This document shows, piece by piece, positions 329-26,730 of a DNA stretch of 26,936 bases; within the stretch, counting starts at the first letter, position 1; each line of letters begins with the position of its first letter. Below the pieces are notes generated by a model, which saw nothing but the letters and a program-made list of their open reading frames with translations, did not search any database and was not told where the DNA came from. The stretch is from a virus (taxonomy: Duplodnaviria; Heunggongvirae; Uroviricota; Caudoviricetes). The DNA is taken from IMG/VR virus record IMGVR_UViG_2660238215_000003; one strand, written 5' to 3'. The translations under genes were made by a program, and so were the position numbers.

Positions 329-977
329 TGGCAGCAAATACCGAAATATTTGGGTAGTTGGCGATCTGCACGGATGCTACACGAACCTGATGAAAAAACT
401 GGAGACGATAGGATTCGACACCAAAAAAGACCTGCTTATCTCGGTTGGCGATTTGGTCGATCGCGGTACAGAGAACGTCGAATGTCTGGAATTAATCACA
501 TTCCCCTGGTTCCGAGCTGTACGTGGAAACCATGAGCAAATGATGATTGATGGCTTATCAGAGCGTGGAAACGTCAATCACTGGCTGCTTAATGGCGGTG
601 GCTGGTTCTTTAATCTCGATTACGACAAAGAAATTCTGGCTAAAGCTCTTGCCCATAAAGCAGATGAACTTCCGTTAATCATCGAACTGGTGAGCGAAGG
701 TAAAAAATATGTCATCTGCCACGCCGATTATCCTTGTGACGAATACGAATTTGGAAAGCCAGTTGATCATCAGCAGGTAATCTGGAACCGCGAACGAATC
801 AGCAACTCACAAGACGGGATCGTGAAAGAAATCAAAGGAGCGGACACGTTCATCTTTGGTCATACGCCAGCAGTGAAACCACTCAAGTTTGCCAACCAGA
901 TGTATATCGATACCGGCGCAGTGTTCTGCGGAAACCTCACATTGATTCAGGTACAGGGAGAAGGCGCGTGGGCATAA
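306..977 (+). CDS. Ser/Thr protein phosphatase, lambda ORF221/NinI-type calcineurin-like metallophosphatase
   Basis: Translation from the in-frame ATG at 306 begins [24 protein letters not shown] and contains the metallophosphatase motifs GDLHG, GDLVDRG and GNHE. The 231 start in the ORF track is an upstream extension overlapping ninH. Confidence 0.9.
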
Positions 978-1456
978 GAGAACTAAACCTCACCAAAGAG
1001 CAGCACGAGTGGCTGAATGGCTGGCTTGAACTGTGGGGCGCATGGGTTTATTCAGGTCGTCTGGAAAAGCGCATGAGCAGCGTAATAGCGAAGTTCATGG
1101 AGAGCGTAGAGCCGGGGAGAGTTATGACAAGGCCAATGTGCAATGATGATGATGGAATGTTGATTTCTCAGGTCGTCGATTCCGTCATGTACATTGACAA
1201 GAAAGCCTTTGGCATCCTCCTCAGCTACTACGCTCATGGTTCTTCCAGGCACGCCATTGCATCTTACTATCATCGCGTCGCAAGACCTCGCAAGATGTTA
1301 TGCCGGGGCGGCGGGCGCATTCAAAAACCATCGCTCGCAACCTGTCGACGGGAAGTTGACGAAATCCTTAATGCCTCGTTGTTTATGATTTACCCGGTTC
1401 TGGATAGTGCGTTTAAAAACCGGAAACGTGTAGAGAAAATTAAACATGTAGCATAG
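968..1456 (+). CDS. Q: Late-gene antitermination protein Q (phage 21/82-type Q family)
   Basis: GTG start with GGAGAAGG SD upstream, overlapping the phosphatase stop; conserved N-terminal LELWGAW segment and Cys-rich middle typical of Q-family antiterminators; followed directly by a promoter-like region and terminator. The first in-frame ATG (1073) would remove the conserved N-terminus. Confidence 0.8.
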
Positions 1457-1678: not shown

Positions 1679-2191
1679 ATGAAAGAAATAAAATTAACGC
1701 CAGAAATGGTGCTTTCTGTTGTTGATTACAATCCATCATCAGGCGACTTTCACTGGAAATGGAGGCGGGGGAGAGAGAGGACTACTTTGACATGGAACTC
1801 TCGTTTTGCTTTCAAGAAATGCTCATCAATAAGTTCTGGTGGGTATTTAATGATTATGCTTAATGGTAAAGCATACCCTGCTCACAGACTGGCATGGTTG
1901 ATTGTTTATGGCACCATGCCCGATGGCATTATTGATCACATCAACAGGGTAAGAACAGATAACCGGATATCAAATCTTCGTCTTGTCACTCATTCCGAAA
2001 ATATGCAGAACAGGAAAATTCAGAAGAATAATAAATCTGGGTACCGTGGCGTGTCTTGGGATTCTAAGTACGGGAAATGGAGAGCAAGAATTAATGCGTC
2101 TGGAAAGTGTATTAACCTTGGATACCATGACACAGCAGAACTTGCCGCTGCGGCTTTTGAGGCAGCCAGAATGAAATATCATACCGTTTAA
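1679..2191 (+). CDS. HNH endonuclease with C-terminal AP2-type DNA-binding domain (homing-endonuclease-like)
   Basis: ATG with AAGG SD; HNH-like core HINRVRTDNRISNLRLVTHSENMQN; AP2-like segment YRGVSWDSKYGKWRARINASGKCINLGYHDTAELAAAAFEAA; AT-rich relative to neighbours. Confidence 0.8.
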   Translation: MKEIKLTPEMVLSVVDYNPSSGDFHWKWRRGRERTTLTWNSRFAFKKCSSISSGGYLMIMLNGKAYPAHRLAWLIVYGTMPDGIIDHINRVRTDNRISNLRLVTHSENMQNRKIQKNNKSGYRGVSWDSKYGKWRARINASGKCINLGYHDTAELAAAAFEAARMKYHTV

Positions 2192-3415: not shown

Positions 3416-3873
3416 GTCGGTTAACCGCGATTATCTCCGCTCTGGTTATCTGCATCATCGTCTGCCTGTCATGGGCTGTTAATCATTACCGTGATAACGC
3501 AATCGCCTACAAAGAGCAGCGCGATAACAAGGCCAGTGAACTGGAGAAGGCGAACGCCACCATTACTGACATGCAGCAGCGCCAGCGTGATGCTGATGCA
3601 CTCGATGCTAAATACACCGGAGAACTAGCTGATGCGAAAAAGCAGCTTGATGATCTGCAGCGTTGTGTTCGCACTGGCAAGTGTGGGCTGCACTTCAATG
3701 CCCGATGTCCAGCGAGCGGAAAGACCGGCACCGGCAGCTTGGGCGATGCTTCCAGCCCCGGACTTACTGACTCCGCTGAACGGGATTATTTCACCCTCAG
3801 AGAGCGAATCGTCACAGTGACGAAGCAGGTCGGCTACTTGCAGGACTACATCAAAGAGCAGTGTTCAAATTAG
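3412..3873 (+). CDS. Rz: Rz, inner-membrane spanin component (i-spanin)
   Basis: Starts [23 protein letters not shown] (N-terminal TM), followed by a coiled-coil-like charged region; lies after the endolysin and contains an embedded +1-frame lipoprotein ORF. The upstream extension to 3283 in the ORF track overlaps the endolysin and is not hydrophobic. Confidence 0.8.
3632..3820 (+). CDS. Rz1: Rz1, outer-membrane lipoprotein spanin (o-spanin), embedded in Rz in another frame
   Basis: Signal peptide ending in lipobox-like ASVGC followed by TS, then a Pro-rich region and C-terminal [11 protein letters not shown], matching the lambda Rz1 pattern; GGAGA SD; fully contained in Rz. Confidence 0.75.
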
Positions 3874-3931
3874 TGTTAATGAAGAATTTTAAGGGTAATA
3901 TTATCTCTATTTCTCAGGATGGAGGTAATTT

Positions 3932-4339
3932 ATGCAGACCGATCTGGAATACTTGAAGGGAATGTTAGGGGTTTTTATTAAGGCTGGCGGACCATTGATA
4001 TCAGCTAATGACCTTAAAAAAGCTGGATACGAAATAAGCAGCGATAAAGGACTCTTTCATTACTACCAATTGATTGAGAGAGGTTATATCAGTAACCATT
4101 TTCTAGAAATAGGCGATCCTAAGAAATTAGGACTTACTATTGGGCTTAATGAAATCCGTGAATGGCCAGCCAATGTAAGACTCACGTCATCAGGCCAAGA
4201 GTTTGCAGAAACCCTTCAACAAAAGGATGTTTTTGAGAAGCTAAAAACAATTAGCGATCAACCATTATCGGTATTGAAAGATGTTGGTGTAGAGCTTCTA
4301 AAATCCTACGCAAAAAAGAAATTTGGTCTTTCAGATTAA
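3932..4339 (+). CDS. Hypothetical moron protein, DUF2513-like winged-helix protein (function unknown)
   Basis: Strong SD GGAGG 7 nt upstream; AT-rich gene in the lysis-terminase interval; motifs LFHYYQLIERGYISN and a C-terminal helical region resemble, from memory, the DUF2513 family. Not searched. Confidence 0.6.
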   Translation: MQTDLEYLKGMLGVFIKAGGPLISANDLKKAGYEISSDKGLFHYYQLIERGYISNHFLEIGDPKKLGLTIGLNEIREWPANVRLTSSGQEFAETLQQKDVFEKLKTISDQPLSVLKDVGVELLKSYAKKKFGLSD

Positions 4340-4453
4340 CTGCCTATGGGCGGTTTTTATTGCCATTACGATGATTCTCCCCATTGTGATGGCAGTATCC
4401 CCTACAGAGGATAATTAACCATATATCCCCACAAGCAGATAAAGAGGCTCTCA

Positions 4454-4567
4454 ATGTCCGACATCTACCAAACCCAAACAGGCGAAACCTTTACGGGCAA
4501 GACGTCACGACGTCAGCCTGAGCTGGTTAATGGCTTTATGCAGCTGGCTACCGAGACGGGCGAGTAA
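4454..4567 (+). CDS. Possible small ORF (37 aa, MSDIYQTQTGETFTGKTSRRQPELVNGFMQLATETGE)
   Basis: ATG with AAGAGG SD about 8 nt upstream; GC content higher than the surrounding AT-rich DNA; no recognisable family. Confidence 0.25.
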   Translation: MSDIYQTQTGETFTGKTSRRQPELVNGFMQLATETGE

Positions 4568-4655
4568 ATAACTCCATTAGGAGAATGTGGAACCATTACA
4601 CTTTGAGCCGTTAACTGATATTGATAAAGGTAAATAATATCCTGGTTAAGGTTTT

Positions 4656-4928
4656 CTAATAGCCAGCCATTTGCAAAATCACAGTTACAGCAGCAGCGAA
4701 AGCTGCATATGAGTTATATTTAGACTGTAACCGCGCAGTTAAGAAAAATTCGTGAAGATCTACATTTTTTTTGGGATCATCAAATGTAATTGCTACAACG
4801 GTGCTTCTACCTGTTTTGACTTTGGCTGTTGCTGATTTGATCCATAACCCAGCCGATAAAAACCCAAAGAAAATCGATAGTGCATGATGGTCAATTAACC
4901 AGTTTTTAATTAGTAATAAATCACTCAT
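4656..4928 (-). CDS. Hypothetical small membrane protein (about 90 aa, two predicted hydrophobic helices), convergent with the DUF2513-like gene
   Basis: Open minus-strand frame of more than 100 codons in AT-rich DNA (stop-rich composition makes chance ORFs less likely); ATG at complement of 4926-4928 gives MSDLLLIKNW...; hydrophobic segments ALSIFFGFLSAGLWI and AAFAAAVTVILQMAG. Its promoter would have to lie inside terS, and the SD is weak. Confidence 0.4.
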   Translation of the reverse strand: MSDLLLIKNWLIDHHALSIFFGFLSAGLWIKSATAKVKTGRSTVVAITFDDPKKNVDLHEFFLTARLQSKYNSYAAFAAAVTVILQMAGY

Positions 4929-4952
4929 TTTCAATCCAATTGAGACTTTGTC

Positions 4953-5504
4953 ATGGCACTCACCGACAAACAAGAGATGTTCTGTCGCGAGTACCTCATC
5001 GATTTAAACGCCACGCAAGCGGCTATTCGGGCGGGGTACAGCGCAAAGACAGCTAACCGTACCGCATCCGAAAACCTGTCAAAACCTGACATCAAGTTAA
5101 GAATCGCCGAACTGAAAGCGCAACGCAATGATCTTGTTGGTATTAATGCAGGATATGTACTTAATCGCCTTATTGAAATCGACCAGATGGATGTGCTCGA
5201 CATTCTCCTGCAAAACGGTGAGCTAAAGCCCATTAAAGACTGGCCTAAGGTATGGCGCACAACGCTATCAGGAATGGATGTCGTGGAGATGGCATCCGCA
5301 GATAGCGCCGCACTTCTGAAGAAAATCAAATGGCCTGATAAGGTTAAAAACCTTGAGTTGCTCGGGCGTCATGTTTCTGTTCAGGCGTTTAAAGACAATG
5401 TCAAAAATGAAGTGACTGGTGCTGACGGAGGACCAGTCAGAACAGAAATTACCAACTTAACGCCGGAGCAGGTTGCAGAAGCGTATAGAAAAATGATGGG
5501 CTAA
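4953..5504 (+). CDS. Terminase small subunit (P27/Terminase_2-type)
   Basis: N-terminus [30 protein letters not shown] is typical of this small-terminase family; immediately precedes the large terminase. Confidence 0.85.
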
Positions 5505-19134: not shown

Positions 19135-20199
19135 ATGTCACAGAACTGGATGAGACATTTCGAGCTGCAGCTTGTGGACGGGAACGGTCAGGGAATTGAG
19201 CTAAGTGATTTCAAAGTCACCTTTACGATCGACTGGTTCAACATCAGCAGCGCGTCCCGGGTAGGGACTATCAAAATTTATAACCTCTCGGCAGATACTG
19301 TGAACCGAATCACCGGGAAGGAATTTTCGAAAGTGCGGCTGATTGCCGGTTACGACGGTATCGCGCCGGAGGTGGCGGCAAGCGACGTCGGGACCGTGCG
19401 CGAAGTCGACGCGGCAGATGTGGGCCAGAGTGATGGCCGCAACTACGGGCTGATTTTCAGCGGAGAAATTCGCTACTCGGTCACAGGAAAAGACAGCCCT
19501 ATTGATTCCTATGTCCTGATTCAGGCAGCAGATACGGATCTGGCATTTGCCACCAGTATAACCTCACAGACGCTGGCTGCCGGTTACACGGTCGCTGATG
19601 TGAACCGTGCGCTGATGAAAGACTTCGAAGCCAAAGGCGCGACCGAAGGCCTGACGCCTGAAATGCCTGCTACTGTATTCCCCCGGGGGCGGGTGCTCTT
19701 TGGCATGACGCGGCATCTTATGGATAACGTAGCCGGGCAATGTGGCGCAACATGGCAATTCGTGGACGGTCAACGCCAGATGGTGGCGAATAACGAATAT
19801 GTTCATGAAGCGATTGTGCTCAACAGCGCCACCGGGCTTATCAGCATGCCGCAGCAGACTATCGGCAACGGCGTAAACGTCCGCGCGCTTATTAATCCGA
19901 ACATCCGGGTTAATGGGCTCATTCAACTGGATCAGGCTTCCGTATATCGCACCGCGTTGTCGAACAACGATATTGCGATGGCTGGTGGGCAGATCACCGA
20001 CCAGAACACGGACGGAAATATCACGCTAAGCGGCACCACAGCACAACCTGCCAGCATCGCAACGGATGGCGTTTATATTGTGCGCGGGATTATGTACACT
20101 GGCGATACAAGGGGCCAGGCGTGGTACATGGATATGATGTGCGAAGCGCGTGGCGCGGCGGATCTTCAAAGTCAAGGAGCAATGAATCGGTGGGGATAA
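19135..20199 (+). CDS. Tail/baseplate hub-like protein (Mu gpP-like position)
   Basis: 354 aa, GGAG SD; sits between tape measure-associated genes and the baseplate V-like gene. Confidence 0.55.
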   Translation: MSQNWMRHFELQLVDGNGQGIELSDFKVTFTIDWFNISSASRVGTIKIYNLSADTVNRITGKEFSKVRLIAGYDGIAPEVAASDVGTVREVDAADVGQSDGRNYGLIFSGEIRYSVTGKDSPIDSYVLIQAADTDLAFATSITSQTLAAGYTVADVNRALMKDFEAKGATEGLTPEMPATVFPRGRVLFGMTRHLMDNVAGQCGATWQFVDGQRQMVANNEYVHEAIVLNSATGLISMPQQTIGNGVNVRALINPNIRVNGLIQLDQASVYRTALSNNDIAMAGGQITDQNTDGNITLSGTTAQPASIATDGVYIVRGIMYTGDTRGQAWYMDMMCEARGAADLQSQGAMNRWG

Positions 20200-20201
20200 G
20201 A

Positions 20202-20666
20202 TTGAATAAGAAAGCCATTTTTATTGCAATAAGTTTACTTGTTCCGATGTCGGGATTAGCCGCTCCTGGGAAGTATGAAAAAATGGCTGTTGATTTAATG
20301 GATCAGCAAAAGTTTACGCAGTGGCAACATTACGCCTCTGCTACTCCTTTTTTCGCTATGAATGGTCGCAGATTCGCCATGACCATTGATGATTTCGCGG
20401 ATATAGTCAGCAACTCCTTTCAAGGATGCGAAGATCTGGATGCCTACACCAATCGGAAAGGAACTACGGATGATTGTAAGTCCTATGTTTACAAAGGCAT
20501 AAAGGAGTGGGTAAACCTCTCTCAAGATAAGTCTGTTAGCGATACAGCATGGAAAATGGGCCAGCGCTATGCCTTCAACACACGTAATCCTATTGCCCAT
20601 AAAAACGCATGGGATTTCAATGGGATGGCGGCCGGTATTCGCGTTGCTAAATCTCAAGGTTATTAA
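20202..20666 (+). CDS. Hypothetical secreted (signal-peptide) moron protein, TTG start predicted
   Basis: In-frame TTG at 20202 gives NKKAIFIAISLLVPMSGLAA-P: basic n-region, hydrophobic core, Ala-x-Ala-like cleavage context. The ORF track start at 20121 lies inside the upstream gene. AT-rich; no recognisable virion family. Confidence 0.5.
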   Translation: MNKKAIFIAISLLVPMSGLAAPGKYEKMAVDLMDQQKFTQWQHYASATPFFAMNGRRFAMTIDDFADIVSNSFQGCEDLDAYTNRKGTTDDCKSYVYKGIKEWVNLSQDKSVSDTAWKMGQRYAFNTRNPIAHKNAWDFNGMAAGIRVAKSQGY

Positions 20667-20872
20667 GTCATGGATGCGCCGAAAATCATCGGATCTTTCC
20701 CTTGTAAAAAAGTGGCTGGGTGAAGGTGACCTGAAATTCGTAACGCCTGAAAAACAACAAAATGTGCTCTAAAAACTGTTGTTTTTTGAGACGAGCGATT
20801 ACACTGCACTGACTTTTTGATGGTGGATTGCCATCGATATGCTACTTCATTAAAGCCAGGAATAACTAAAAC

Positions 20873-21604
20873 ATGAGTTTAGCGCAGCCAAAATCAGGAG
20901 AACTGTTAGATCTTCTGACTCCTTCATTAACTAAGGGTGAAAACCTTCTGAGTGAGTTTGAAATCCATCGAATCATTCGTGAAGCGAAGAAACTACCTGA
21001 ACGTTATCAGGGGCTATCAATTGAAGGCTTAGCTAAGCTTGTTCTTGGTGAAATAGATGAAGGATGTTCACTCTGTGAGCGGGGGTTGAGAATAGCGCCT
21101 AACGATCCAGTTTCTTTTTGTAACTATACGATTGCGCTGCGTAACTTAGGTTTGCATGCTCGCCAGTATGTGATGATTCAGAAAGCATCTGATTCACTTA
21201 ATCCAACGATATTGGCTGAGGTTGCTACAATTTCTGCATACTGGGTTGATATCGATTTGCTTGAAAAGGTGATGCCGATGCTAACTGCAATGGAAGTACC
21301 GCGCCCTGAAGATATGGGCAAATGGTATGACACGCTCAATTATCTGCATACCCAAAAAGATCATGCTCAGGAGCTAAAAACTATTGGGCGGCTCATGATG
21401 AACGTTGCAGAAAAGTACCGCGCTCGTCTTGCTGGCGCTCATGCTTTTTATGTAATGTCAGAACTTGATACGCTGTTCGTTGAAGTCAAAACAGACGATC
21501 CAGTGCTTCTTTCGCAGATGAATAATGCCTTGGCTGATGAGATTATTATTGCGGGGCTTGCGGATTCAGAATGCGTCGGATGCTTTGAAGCCGGGGAACT
21601 CTAA
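20873..21604 (+). CDS. Hypothetical protein, gene 1 of a two-gene accessory cassette (243 aa)
   Basis: ATG with AGGAA SD after a ~200 nt non-coding leader; AT-rich; stop overlaps the start of the next gene. Confidence 0.65.
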   Translation: MSLAQPKSGELLDLLTPSLTKGENLLSEFEIHRIIREAKKLPERYQGLSIEGLAKLVLGEIDEGCSLCERGLRIAPNDPVSFCNYTIALRNLGLHARQYVMIQKASDSLNPTILAEVATISAYWVDIDLLEKVMPMLTAMEVPRPEDMGKWYDTLNYLHTQKDHAQELKTIGRLMMNVAEKYRARLAGAHAFYVMSELDTLFVEVKTDDPVLLSQMNNALADEIIIAGLADSECVGCFEAGEL

Positions 21605-22032
21605 TGTCGGTTGAGCATACCTGTTTTCTTGAATTGGCTAAGCATTCCCTGGCTCTAAACGGTGAGATGTGGACGAGAAATGCTATTAGCCGAGCATACT
21701 ATGGTATGTACCATTCCGCCTTACGGATCACCAACAATCTGGTACCGACCGCTACACAAGATGGTGAAAAACTAAAAGGTGGAGTTCACATGCGAGTCTA
21801 TACGGCCTTTTGTAGTGGTGAGGCAGCTGCACTTAACGATGTTGATGTTAACGCAGTAAAGAAAATCGGCGTTAAACTGAAAATGACGCATGCCCAACGT
21901 GTTAATTCTGATTACAAGCTTGAGCGGAAAATCAACCGGATTACCGCGAGAAGTGTAATTCTGGATGCGGAAGAGGTCGATGCAATCGTTAATCAATTAC
22001 TGAAGATTGGTGATGACTCGTTAACTGCATAA
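21604..22032 (+). CDS. Hypothetical protein, gene 2 of the two-gene cassette (142 aa), possible HEPN-like helix
   Basis: ATG overlapping the upstream TAA (TAATG), GGGGA SD; N-terminal helix SRAYYGMYHSALR contains an R-x6-H arrangement; followed by a strong terminator. Confidence 0.65.
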   Translation: MSVEHTCFLELAKHSLALNGEMWTRNAISRAYYGMYHSALRITNNLVPTATQDGEKLKGGVHMRVYTAFCSGEAAALNDVDVNAVKKIGVKLKMTHAQRVNSDYKLERKINRITARSVILDAEEVDAIVNQLLKIGDDSLTA

Positions 22033-22053
22033 GCTGAAATTTCTCAAAATTCA

Positions 22054-22078
22054 AACCCGCCACTTGGCGGGTTTTTTG
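22054..22078 (+). terminator. Intrinsic terminator ending the two-gene cassette
   Basis: Stem AACCCGCC / GGCGGGTT with loop ACTT followed by TTTTTT. Confidence 0.8.
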
Positions 22079-22096
22079 CTTTCTGGAGCCTACTAA

Positions 22097-22849
22097 ATGG
22101 CAGTATCTGACCAGACCCGCAGCGGCGACCTTGCCGAAACATTTAAATCTGAACGGGAAACAACAAAGAACCAGATCCGTGTCGCCTTGCCTGGCATTGT
22201 TCAGTCATTCGCTCCTGATGCGGTGACGGCGGTTGTACAGCCTGCTATCCGTTACGTTGAAATTGATAACGACGGCAACCGCATTACCAAAAATTACCCA
22301 TTGCTGGTGGATGTGCCAGTGGTATTCCCGCGTGGCGGAGGCTGTACGCTAACGTTTCCAGTTAAAGCCGGTGATGAATGTTTGGTGATTTTTGCCGATC
22401 GTTGTATTGATTTCTGGTGGCAGAGTGGCGGGATACAGGAGCCGGTCGATGACAGAATGCATGATTTATCGGATGCGTTTTGTATTGTCGGTCCCCAGTC
22501 GCAGGCAAGGAAGATTAGCGGTATTAATACCAGTGCCACACAGTTGCGTAGTGATGACGGCAGCACCTATTTTGAGCTTAATCCTGATACCAGGAAAATT
22601 AAAATTGTCGCTCCGGGGGGCCTTGATGTGGTTGCCCCTCTGGCTGATTTTTCTGAGAAAGTAACCATTCATGGCCTGTTAACCTGGATGGGAGGCATGG
22701 TGGGGTCTGTTGTTTCTGGTGTGGCTTCAAAAATCACTGGTGCTGTTGAGTTTTTGGGTAGCGTGAAGGCTAACGGCAAGCCAATCGATGATACGCACAC
22801 TCATGGTGGTGTTCAGCGCGGTGGAAGCAATACCGACGGAGTAAACTGA
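22097..22849 (+). CDS. Baseplate assembly protein V-like (spike/hub)
   Basis: 250 aa, GGAG SD; followed by W-, J- and I-like genes in P2/Mu order. Confidence 0.7.
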   Translation: MAVSDQTRSGDLAETFKSERETTKNQIRVALPGIVQSFAPDAVTAVVQPAIRYVEIDNDGNRITKNYPLLVDVPVVFPRGGGCTLTFPVKAGDECLVIFADRCIDFWWQSGGIQEPVDDRMHDLSDAFCIVGPQSQARKISGINTSATQLRSDDGSTYFELNPDTRKIKIVAPGGLDVVAPLADFSEKVTIHGLLTWMGGMVGSVVSGVASKITGAVEFLGSVKANGKPIDDTHTHGGVQRGGSNTDGVN

Positions 22850-26140: not shown

Positions 26141-26557
26141 ATGAACAATTACGTATGGTCAGCATTACATGTTTCATTTTTCCCTAAGGCGATGTTGCAA
26201 GATTATGAATCTGCCGGGCGGGATCTATCTGATATCATTGAAATTGATGATATGGTTTTTCAGACATTTACATCAGCGCCACCTGAAGGTAAACAACTAG
26301 GTGTCGTTAATGGAATGCCTTCTTGGGTAGACAGGTTAGCTCCACCTAATTCTGAACTGAGAAAATCAGCGCTTTCTTCACTTAGCAGCGAATATCAGGA
26401 TGATATTGAGAAACTAAACAGGGTGTGGTTAGCTGCAGCCGTTAATGGTGGTGTTAATGAGACAGCAAAAAAGGACTCCGTCCTAGCACAGATCAATGCA
26501 AGAAAATTGCAGTATGCAAATGACAGGGCTGCGATTATTGCTCAATATCCTGTTTAA
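26141..26557 (+). CDS. Tail fibre assembly protein (Tfa-like chaperone)
   Basis: ATG at 26141 with GGGAG SD, 1 nt after the fibre stop; begins MNNYVWS; AT-rich like exchangeable fibre/tfa modules. The ORF track start at 26030 is an upstream extension. Confidence 0.7.
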   Translation: MNNYVWSALHVSFFPKAMLQDYESAGRDLSDIIEIDDMVFQTFTSAPPEGKQLGVVNGMPSWVDRLAPPNSELRKSALSSLSSEYQDDIEKLNRVWLAAAVNGGVNETAKKDSVLAQINARKLQYANDRAAIIAQYPV

Positions 26558-26568
26558 TGGAGAAAATC

Positions 26569-26730
26569 ATGGCAGATTCTAATGCGTCACCAGAAAACGA
26601 AAACCAGGCGTCAAATCCAGCCTCCGAGATAAGATTTTGCCCCATATGTGGAACGCAAATGTATCAGGGAGAGCGCTACGGCTTCCAATGCTGGATTTGC
26701 CCAGAGTGTGATTTTGATGAGCCAGTGTGA
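26569..26730 (+). CDS. Possible small zinc-ribbon protein (53 aa, CPIC...CWICPEC)
   Basis: ATG with GGAG SD 6 nt upstream; CxxC...CxxC spacing; followed by a strong terminator. Preferred over the antisense 68-aa ORF in the track. Confidence 0.4.
   Translation: MADSNASPENENQASNPASEIRFCPICGTQMYQGERYGFQCWICPECDFDEPV

Follow-up and report, generated by a model that had tools for sequence, protein, structure and literature searches.

A HEPN and TPR gene pair as a candidate mobile conflict module in a variable slot of a SEN34-like Escherichia coli prophage

Here, we found that the stretch separating the baseplate hub gene from the spike gene in an Escherichia coli prophage holds two overlapping genes. 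The downstream one (ORF2) encodes an AF0298-like HEPN domain, and the upstream one (ORF1) a TPR solenoid that is non-enzymatic and carries a small α/β domain. We hold with moderate confidence that the two genes form a mobile conflict module, which a SEN34-like (Brunovirus-type) E. coli prophage carries as cargo in a variable slot. ORF1 is proposed to serve the HEPN protein as partner, regulator or sensor, we infer for the cassette a function in conflict, and the pair is a credible candidate for a new toxin-antitoxin or anti-phage system. All coordinates refer to the window, i.e. the whole stretch of 26,936 nucleotides that was analysed (IMG/VR record IMGVR_UViG_2660238215_000003).

The cassette and its slot

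The two reading frames (Table 1) have exactly the coordinates given in the original prediction of two translationally coupled ORFs, and share one base within the TAATG at 21602-21606. The good Shine-Dalgarno sequence claimed for the cassette was found as an AGGA at 20858-20861, 11 nt 5' of ATG1, and the ribosome-binding site of ORF2 is a GGGGA 6 nt 5' of ATG2. Compared with an 88%-identical E. coli variant, dN/dS amounts to 0.087 and 0.084 for the two ORFs; ORF1 and ORF2 are genuine genes and purifying selection acts on the pair (dN/dS ≈ 0.085). The coding part measures 1.16 kb, or about 1.37 kb with the native leader and terminator.

With a GC content of 0.44 and a GC3 of 0.38-0.41, the cassette differs sharply from the four tail genes upstream (GC 0.52-0.55, GC3 0.59-0.63) and more mildly from the baseplate genes downstream (GC 0.48-0.52, GC3 0.42-0.58), so that the earlier description of the DNA as visibly AT-richer holds in full on the upstream side and in weaker form on the other. 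The AT-rich block begins at ~20200 and takes in a third ORF at 20202-20666.

Table 1. Features of the cassette and its slot in the window
Feature	Position	Strand	Remarks
Remnant 3' end of a STY1065/STY2022-family backbone gene	20661..20714	+	ends in MDAPKIIGSFPCKKVAG and a stop; left boundary of the variable slot
Cassette-specific leader	20715..20872	+	common to E. coli WAT; carries the Shine-Dalgarno AGGA
AT-rich hairpin with T-run	20747-20790	+	in leader; -8.6 kcal/mol
Inverted repeat GATGG-N7-CCATC	20819-20835	+	in leader; overlaps the weak -35/-10-like hexamers
Weak -35/-10-like hexamers	TTGATG (20817), 15 nt, TATGCT (20843)	+	in leader; read by eye, below the sigma-70 consensus scan
ORF1	20873..21604	+	243 aa; TPR/HAT-like helical solenoid and C-terminal α-β-β-α-β domain
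ORF2	21604..22032	+	142 aa; HEPN domain of AF0298/UPF0332 (PF05168, HEPN-T) type
Intrinsic terminator	22053..22082	+	AAACCCGCC-ACTT-GGCGGGTTT and T-tract; right slot boundary, about 20 nt 5' of the spike gene

The leader had been described as ~200 nt long. Its first ~50 nt turned out to be the 3' remnant of the displaced backbone gene, and the remainder is cassette-specific. The promoter-like hexamers claimed for it did not stand up to a sigma-70 consensus scan, which found no promoter in the leader and one match across 2.4 kb, fewer than in shuffles. Between 20748 and 20872, the leader of variants with 88% identical coding DNA shows an identity of 90-92%, a gap too small to serve as a sign of a regulatory element, and we rejected it as such.

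The remnant on the left boundary can be aligned to the 3' ends of its counterparts in SEN34, E. coli WAT, RIVM_C040348 and HZ13, and homology to most E. coli prophages starts at ~20669. The hub gene upstream of the slot matches phrog_196 (E 1e-87), and the spike gene downstream matches PF18352 (E 4e-43) and carries the apex motif. In an identical RefSeq prophage, the genes after the spike are annotated as W-like, J/gp47 and wedge proteins. Up to this point the P2/Mu-like tail order proposed earlier is confirmed, whereas the expected fibre place is taken by a truncated pseudogene CDS followed by a gp53-like domain protein; the SEN34 record lists, at the equivalent positions, a tail fibre and a tail-fibre assembly protein.

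The right boundary is a strong hairpin with a 9-bp stem (6 GC pairs), a 4-nt loop and a T-tract, with a folding energy of -15.7 kcal/mol. The same hairpin is kept ahead of the spike gene in SEN34-like prophages with unrelated cargo. Thus, the terminator is a property of the slot and not of the cassette: the structure predicted at this place exists, but it is not the cassette's own, and for the SEN34-like backbone we rejected it as a cassette part, the hairpin being common to all cargoes. Klebsiella lambdoid prophages and phage ST405-OXA48phi1.3 have a near-identical hairpin 3' of the HEPN gene; common ancestry could account for it, as could convergence towards a common terminator sequence. Other prophages hold unrelated cargo in the same hub-spike slot, and SEN34 itself carries two ORFs there, both unrelated to ORF2; it is therefore the slot that is conserved rather than its genes. 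Among the alternative slot cargoes seen, there was no known defence system.

Distribution of the pair

Are ORF1 and ORF2 parts of the baseplate or cargo within it? Of 5426 complete E. coli genomes, 33 contain the pair, while the adjacent spike and baseplate genes are found in 256-316. Together with the unrelated cargo of the slot elsewhere, these counts uphold the claim that the cassette is dispensable inside the baseplate module. A role of both proteins as structural or assembly components of the baseplate has in its favour their position between the hub and spike genes and nothing else. We consider it highly improbable and rejected it on presence/absence and on the non-tail contexts described below: of the E. 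coli prophages that share these hub, spike and baseplate genes, about 90% are without the pair, as is phage SEN34, the pair occurs in non-tail and non-phage surroundings, and the folds are those of HEPN and TPR proteins. Indeed, the earlier view that neither product is a virion protein agrees with its absence from most prophages of the same baseplate type and its presence in contexts away from tails. Presence and absence among collinear relatives and a foreign composition are both what is expected of a moron. The cassette likewise resembles known moron and hotspot cargo of temperate phages (P2/P4, Rousset 2022; the lambdoid nin region and lysis-terminase gap) in its variable slot with conserved flanks, its foreign composition, the downstream terminator and the existence of alternative cargoes.

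The two genes travel together. In all 36 distinct adjacent pairs recovered, ORF1 comes before ORF2 and the stop of the one abuts or overlaps the start of the other, and a search by the HEPN protein alone retrieved the pair in 28 of 34 species-level loci. The arrangement is that of a generic type II-like system, namely a pair of small genes that overlap, share their orientation and are transferred together. Among the more remote HEPN relatives, several (L054-L057) lack the partner, which counts against our main reading. The distances of ORF1 and ORF2 correlate with a Pearson r of 0.73 (Mantel 0/2000) and a Spearman coefficient of 0.08, so that the co-evolution signal is limited to close relatives; as the long-range signal is absent, we dropped it as evidence. 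The HEPN gene of a divergent copy of the pair is left unannotated in at least one RefSeq prophage.

The pair recurs in at least six distinct prophage slots. Besides the hub-spike slot of the SEN34-like baseplate in the window, it lies in the nin region of Klebsiella lambdoid prophages, in the gap that separates lysis from terminase genes in Yersinia, in a P2-like Vibrio phage between the genes for late control and replication A, next to the tape-measure module of a Klebsiella phage and, in more distant family members, beside the integrase of P2/186-like prophages of Yersinia and Serratia. Distant Proteobacteria and one Bacteroidota genome also have the pair, in the form of small islands. Azonexus, Pararobbsia and a Pseudomonadales MAG carry it as a two-gene island set among housekeeping genes, and a Gallionella copy is located beside conjugation and integrase genes. 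Among sequenced phage isolates, 3 of 50,697 records carry the pair.

These contexts also bear on counter-defence or host takeover during lytic growth, in which the TPR protein would sequester a host immune component or the HEPN RNase would degrade transcripts of the host or of competitors. The window encodes a Q antiterminator and the pair sits inside the Q-dependent late operon, and would therefore be transcribed late in infection by read-through; the Yersinia copy, too, lies between lysis and terminase genes. However, the copies beside the integrase of P2-like prophages, in the nin region and in chromosomes without nearby phage genes argue for a function independent of any single phage's programme, and the rarity of the pair in phage isolates suggests a link to lysogens and not to virulent phages. 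We regard this explanation as improbable.

The HEPN protein and its partner

The profile of the ORF2 family, searched against 5.8 billion sequences, retrieves PF05168 carriers (P0104, P0120, P0128 and P0132) with E-values of 1e-9 to 2e-5. The window ORF2 itself stays below the Pfam and NCBIfam thresholds; 4 of 25 close relatives match PF05168, weakly (E ≥ 0.11), and several family members bear the JGI label UPF0332. Single ORF1 and ORF2 sequences matched nothing in PDB searches, and the ORF2 profile aligned to 2hsb weakly (E 0.16) with both signature motifs in register. ORF2 has the four-helix up-and-down HEPN fold, with helices at 21-43, 61-71 (short) and 82-104 and a non-helical segment at 44-60. 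The HEPN-like nature proposed for gene 2 is thus borne out by the fold and by the profile link to PF05168 proteins, whereas R30-x6-H37 does not hold as the HEPN RNase motif, since both residues sit in helix 2.

At the end of helix 3, where HEPN RNases carry the canonical Rx4-6H, ORF2 reads R99-V-N-S-D103-Y104. The RxxxDY pattern is found in 96 of 96 relatives, while Rx4-6H occurs in the C-terminal half of just 11 of the 96, which is chance level; the canonical catalytic histidine is absent and D103 stands in its place. A second histidine, H62, is invariant in the 96 sequences and starts the short helix that follows the non-helical segment, i.e. it belongs to the insert that separates helix 2 from helix 3, as in AF0298-like proteins. 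Helix 2 contributes the conserved polar residues E21, R25, R30 and H37 to those of the helix 3 end (R99, D103, Y104) and of the insert, and R25, R30, H62, R99, D103 and Y104 are invariant across about 25% sequence identity. An aspartate for the histidine of the motif and an alternative conserved histidine in the helix 2-3 insert have been described for AF0298-like HEPN-T proteins (PMC3710099), and, as far as sequence can tell, the polar residues of ORF2 would fit the 'alternative active site' of this subfamily. Because of the universal RxxxDY, the invariant H62 and the PF05168 profile matches, we identify ORF2 by the signatures of the HEPNs of PF05168, the 'class II' HEPN/MNT toxins (PMC7641770).

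Class II HEPN/MNT modules (PF05168 with PF01909, AF0298-type HEPN-T) share with our pair the HEPN fold, the sRAYYxxxH of helix 2, the RxxxDY where helix 3 ends and the insert histidine, as well as a gene order in which a small partner lies upstream of an overlapping HEPN gene. We know of no class II (PF05168, non-Rx4H) HEPN with demonstrated RNase activity or toxicity. The class II modules differ from our pair in the partner, a nucleotidyltransferase in class II, and in their range, as class II modules occur in archaea and thermophiles and the pair mainly in Enterobacterales prophages.

ORF1 is built of a solenoid of helix-turn-helix repeats with TPR profile matches (residues ~7-160) and a C-terminal domain (162-243), an architecture unlike that of the class II MNT. 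Pfam and NCBIfam scans of the window ORF1 gave no significant match, no NTP_transf match was found for it or its 80 relatives, including NTP_transf_2 for ORF1, and G[SG]x8-14[DE]x[DE] appears in 9 of the 81 family members, without positional conservation. With motif and Pfam match absent and a different fold, ORF1 was rejected as an MNT; the adjacent nucleotidyltransferase with GSx10DxD that defines HEPN/MNT modules is missing here. Since ORF1 is not a nucleotidyltransferase, neutralisation by AMPylation in the manner of type VII HepT/MntA is not expected, and that system differs further in its DUF86 HEPN of another subfamily, whose Rx4HxY is lacking in the C-terminal half of ORF2. No HTH, RHH or AbrB domain was detected in ORF1. 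It thus lacks the DNA-binding domain usual for type II antitoxins, which counts against our main reading.

The same residues bear on a non-catalytic HEPN adaptor, in which ORF2 would have lost nuclease activity, would bind RNA or nucleotides and would form with the TPR protein a regulatory or scaffolding complex without killing, to the benefit of the phage or lysogen, e.g. by modulating host RNA metabolism or lysogeny. Asp replaces the canonical Rx4-6H histidine in every one of the 96 family members, HEPNs without the canonical motif may bind RNA without cutting it (PMC3710099), ORF1 has no enzymatic motif and defence models are unmatched. Nevertheless, the six invariant residues are all kept, as PMC3710099 predicts for the alternative active site, such a charged and polar set is unlike the pattern of an inert scaffold, and a toxin-antitoxin-like gene order, overlapping genes and promiscuous mobility are what one typically sees in selfish or defensive modules rather than in dedicated regulators. 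We therefore judge the adaptor rather unlikely.

Relation to known systems and possible function

PADLOC-DB v2.0 gave no significant match (best: HEPN_IX for ORF2, E 0.0094, 14 bits; PDC-M71B for ORF1, E 0.037). Of the defence- or toxin-antitoxin-like system originally predicted, the behaviour as a mobile unit is supported, while this check of the proteins against defence models came back empty. A full-text keyword search of the literature did not find the pair described, and for PF05168 with defence it yielded nothing beyond PMC3710099 and PMC7641770; nor did we come upon any account of a defence hotspot in the hub-spike slot of SEN34-like myovirus tails. WP_000050470 and WP_000110002 were not found in the searchable parts of the supplements of DefensePredictor (PMC13092281) and Rousset 2022 (PMC9122126), and the signature peptides not in the searchable parts of the former. 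The 'HEPN-TPR' of Rousset 2022 is a single gene (pFR83) among the 'additional tested systems' (PMC9122126), and we rejected it and DS-28 of DefensePredictor as relatives, both having the canonical R-x4-H and unrelated sequences. HEPN families coupled to α-solenoid repeat proteins show the same pairing of HEPN and solenoid and were earlier proposed to act in conflict or abortive-infection systems, but they keep the canonical Rx4-6H, whereas ORF2 belongs to the HEPN-T clade.

How could a conflict module of this kind work? In the lysogen, we speculate that a putative weak promoter within the leader would drive the pair, and the terminator at 22053 would prevent this transcription from reaching the tail genes; when the phage grows lytically, Q-modified polymerase would read through it. 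By translational coupling, ORF1 would be made in fixed proportion to ORF2, a candidate RNase or RNA-binding toxin, and would bind it and hold it inactive in place of the MNT antitoxin of classical HEPN/MNT modules. A phage-derived cue may then bind, titrate or destabilise the TPR protein, and the freed HEPN would cut or block cellular and phage RNA, so that the infection is aborted. Alternatively, without a phage, the pair may act as a plain addiction module.

A broader version of this proposal, which we advance only tentatively, is that the TPR-αβ protein and the AF0298-like HEPN represent an unrecognised, widespread class of HEPN immune or toxin-antitoxin systems, in which a repeat-protein sensor without enzymatic activity replaces the MNT, and phage proteins captured by it release the non-canonical R99/H62 RNase. 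The C-terminal domain of ORF1 may then be a decayed nucleotidyltransferase-like fold. The class would span prophages of Enterobacterales and Vibrio, Beta- and Gammaproteobacteria and one Bacteroidota genome, and would act as prophage-borne abortive infection.

Few predicted toxin-antitoxin systems are as abundant as HEPN/MNT modules, and the pair is a compact E. coli example that couples the PF05168 class II branch to a wholly different partner. It allows direct cloning and tests of toxicity, neutralisation, phage exclusion and the reality of the R99/H62 alternative active site. Its recurrence in at least six prophage slots also makes it a good marker for cargo hotspots, the hub-spike junction included. 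If the pair is merely an addiction module or an inert adaptor, it is an ordinary moron of modest interest. If it defends, it would be one more system missed by PADLOC models, and, if the immune-module reading is true, SEN34-like prophages would have a new defence hotspot at their hub-spike junction.

Setting of the cassette in a variable slot

We found that the window corresponds to the late region in a temperate phage genome and encodes a Q antiterminator, an HNH endonuclease, lysis proteins, terminase, head proteins and a contractile tail. Its genes are collinear with those of Salmonella phage SEN34 (Brunovirus), and over positions 20150-22150 it matches a prophage of E. coli OkiPb01713 with 100% identity. 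The two ORFs of the cassette were computed exactly where the original prediction had placed them, and they have one base in common at the TAATG overlap that it had described. The GC content is 0.44 in the cassette (GC3 0.38-0.41), 0.52-0.55 in the four tail genes upstream (GC3 0.59-0.63) and 0.48-0.52 in the baseplate genes downstream. Against an E. coli variant of 88% identity, dN/dS was 0.087 for ORF1 and 0.084 for ORF2; both therefore count as real genes that are under selection. The promoter-like hexamers proposed for the leader found no support, as a sigma-70 consensus scan of the leader returned no promoter.

Features of the cassette and its surroundings (window coordinates)
Feature	Position	Strand	Description
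Q antiterminator gene	968-1456		
HNH ORF	1679-2191	+	HNH_3 and AP2 domains
Lysis-terminase ORF	3932-4339	+	135 aa
Third ORF	20202-20666	+	154 aa, GC 0.43, N-terminal signal peptide (MNKKAIFIAISLLVPMSGLAAPG…)
STY1065-like gene remnant	20661-20714		last ~18 codons only
Best by-eye promoter candidate of the leader	20817-20843		TTGATG-15 nt-TATGCT
ORF1	20873-21604		243 aa
ORF2	21604-22032		142 aa
Hairpin and T-tract	22053-22082		9-bp GC-rich stem, folding energy -15.7 kcal/mol
Zinc-ribbon ORF	26557-26730	+	57 aa, TFIIB-type zinc ribbon (E 9e-6)

In relatives, a ~110-aa gene of the STY1065/STY2022 family comes directly after the hub gene; variable cargo follows, and then a conserved terminator precedes the spike gene. 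SEN34 has a 139-aa membrane protein as its cargo, while a DUF2335 protein, a 184-aa and a 56-aa protein together, and a DUF4282 protein each occupy the slot in another prophage. E. coli RIVM_C040348 carries there a divergent copy of the pair formed by ORF1 (TPR solenoid and α/β domain) and ORF2 (HEPN), with profile E 2e-19 and 3e-27 (L018:3286-4441; L-numbers denote loci from other genomes, with local coordinates). Its HEPN ORF is intact (131 aa, L018:4046-4441, motif R-N-E-A-D-Y) and absent from the RefSeq annotation. We regard it as extremely improbable that the pair is a virion component. Of 5426 complete E. coli genomes, 33 carry the cassette and 316 the adjoining spike and W genes (256 at ≥80% coverage), so that the cassette is present in about 1 in 8 to 10 such prophages.

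The original prediction had also given the cassette its own terminator. The hairpin (ACCCGCC…GGCGGGTTTTTT) is real, but it belongs to the slot rather than to the cassette, because it is conserved, together with the next ~20 nt to the spike ATG, whatever cargo precedes it (all slot cargoes compared, including L002 and L018-L021). As these ~20 nt leave no space for a promoter, transcription of the spike gene would have to come from read-through; the strong terminator lying midway in the tail operon is presumably overcome by Q-modified polymerase, which fits the Q antiterminator of this phage. A near-identical hairpin (ACCCGCC-N3-4-GGCGGGTTTTT) lies 7-19 nt 3' of the HEPN gene in Klebsiella lambdoid prophages (L004-L007:6430) and likewise 3' of that of Klebsiella phage ST405-OXA48phi1.3 (L023:3915), on unrelated backbones. 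It may reflect a terminator co-travelling with such cassettes, a recombination junction or convergence.

At the left boundary, the STY1065/STY2022-family gene, normally next after the hub gene, is reduced to its 3' end, and a third AT-rich ORF takes the place of the remainder. This arrangement was found in 3 of 5426 E. coli genomes. The third ORF had no match in Pfam, NCBIfam or PADLOC and is perhaps an independent gene for lysogenic conversion or exclusion.

Elsewhere in the window, an ORF between the Q antiterminator and lysis genes combines HNH_3 and AP2 domains, as is typical of homing endonucleases. The most AT-rich stretch (3800-5000, GC 0.37-0.43), between the Rz and small terminase genes, contains an ORF with no Pfam match, in the slot that holds the TPR/HEPN pair in Yersinia prophages. 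Immediately 3' of the tail-fibre assembly gene, where the tail module ends in AT-rich DNA, lies the zinc-ribbon ORF.

The HEPN protein and its partner

ORF2 had no direct match to any curated Pfam or NCBIfam model; weak leads were PADLOC HEPN_IX (E 0.0094) and the JGI label "UPF0332" of its relatives. A profile of close relatives aligned with both signature stretches of AF0298 (2hsb), a HEPN-T protein, at E 0.16, and the family profile, searched against 5.8 billion proteins, reached genuine PF05168 HEPN proteins with E-values of 1e-9 to 2e-5. Among 96 family sequences, down to ~25% identity, R25, R30, Y32, Y33, H62, R99, D103 and Y104 are invariant, and E21 and H37 nearly so. Helix 3 (82-104) ends in R99-x3-D103-Y104. 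Between it and helix 2 (21-43) lies H62, where a non-helical stretch (44-60) gives way to a short helix (61-71). According to Anantharaman et al. 2013 (PMC3710099), helix 3 of AF0298-like HEPN-T proteins typically ends without the His of Rx4-6H, often with Asp in its place, and a second His, strongly conserved and contributed by the helix 2-3 insert, may provide an alternative active site. Judged from its sequence, the residue pattern of ORF2 is exactly the one described there. The R30-x6-H37 arrangement, originally likened to HEPN-type RNase motifs, is conserved in 93 of the 96 sequences, but it sits in helix 2 and is a family signature, not the catalytic motif; it matches the AF0298 stretch STAYYAMFHAA, where the Arg is absent.

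Clustered at 50% identity, the ORF1 family (phrog_22649; proteins of 240-270 aa) forms a few dozen clusters among 1.8 billion representatives, and N84, N217 and F238 are its only strongly conserved residues. We sought a nucleotidyltransferase motif in this family and found none; ORF1 is therefore not an MNT nucleotidyltransferase. It looks like a binding protein.

The closest relatives of the pair are the class II HEPN/MNT toxin-antitoxin modules, in which PF05168 HEPNs without RX4HXY are encoded beside MNT genes (Yao et al. 2020, PMC7641770). The HEPN subfamily and the gene order are common to both, but the MNT partner that defines those modules is missing here, so we do not class the pair as a HEPN/MNT system. 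HEPNs are also associated with repeat proteins, LA2681 with TPR and AbiU2 with Sel1 (PMC3710099). Those HEPNs, however, belong to canonical-motif families, whereas ORF2 is without the canonical His. The pair matched no PADLOC model, and neither protein nor an equivalent system was found in the literature and supplements open to search.

A mobile two-gene unit

Does the pair occur beyond this slot? A search with the HEPN alone, run on one genome for each species, yielded 34 loci; 28 of them have an ORF1-family gene directly upstream, and one further locus has an ORF1 match at the contig edge. All loci compared yielded 36 distinct adjacent pairs, always in the order ORF1-ORF2, abutting or overlapping. 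Klebsiella lambdoid prophages carry the pair in the nin region, Yersinia prophages between lysis genes and terminase, and a P2-like Vibrio phage between its late-control gene and replication gene A. It also lies near the tape-measure gene in a Klebsiella phage, and adjoins TrbL and an integrase in Gallionella. In P2/186-like prophages of Yersinia and Serratia it lies at the prophage end, adjoining the integrase (ORF1 partner by hhalign, probability 99.7). Outside phages, it stands as an island of two genes flanked by housekeeping genes, namely TetR/oxidoreductase and YidB in Azonexus, MFS and MutS in Pararobbsia, LolA-like and OpuAC in a Pseudomonadales MAG. To move so widely as a fixed pair is how toxin-antitoxin and defence cassettes behave. 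A co-evolution test of the two ORFs was uninformative (Pearson r 0.73, Spearman 0.08).

In the P2/186-like prophages, the integrase-to-pair interval holds an extra unannotated gene of 219 or 268 aa (L011-L014:3486-4166) with no Pfam match, which might belong to the system as a third component or be cargo of its own. In ST405-OXA48phi1.3, one intact HEPN-family ORF (L023:3501-3896, profile E 1e-33) appears in GenBank as two short CDS (3553-3684 and 3681-3896), probably a mis-annotation.

Possible function of the pair

Fold and motif assignments, synteny, mobility, selection and accessory status are established for the TPR/HEPN pair, which is a real, well-delimited and uncharacterised candidate whose function we can only infer. 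A role as a non-catalytic adaptor pair would fit the missing canonical His, and we are aware of no nuclease activity demonstrated for a class II HEPN; we consider this reading rather unlikely. A counter-defence or takeover function appears improbable. The chances that the pair is a conflict module, for abortive infection or addiction, seem about even. As such a module, the HEPN would be an RNase or RNA-blocking toxin, held inactive by the TPR protein, which would be produced in step through translational coupling. A phage-derived cue would then lift this inhibition and lead to abortive infection; alternatively, the pair may act simply as an addiction module.
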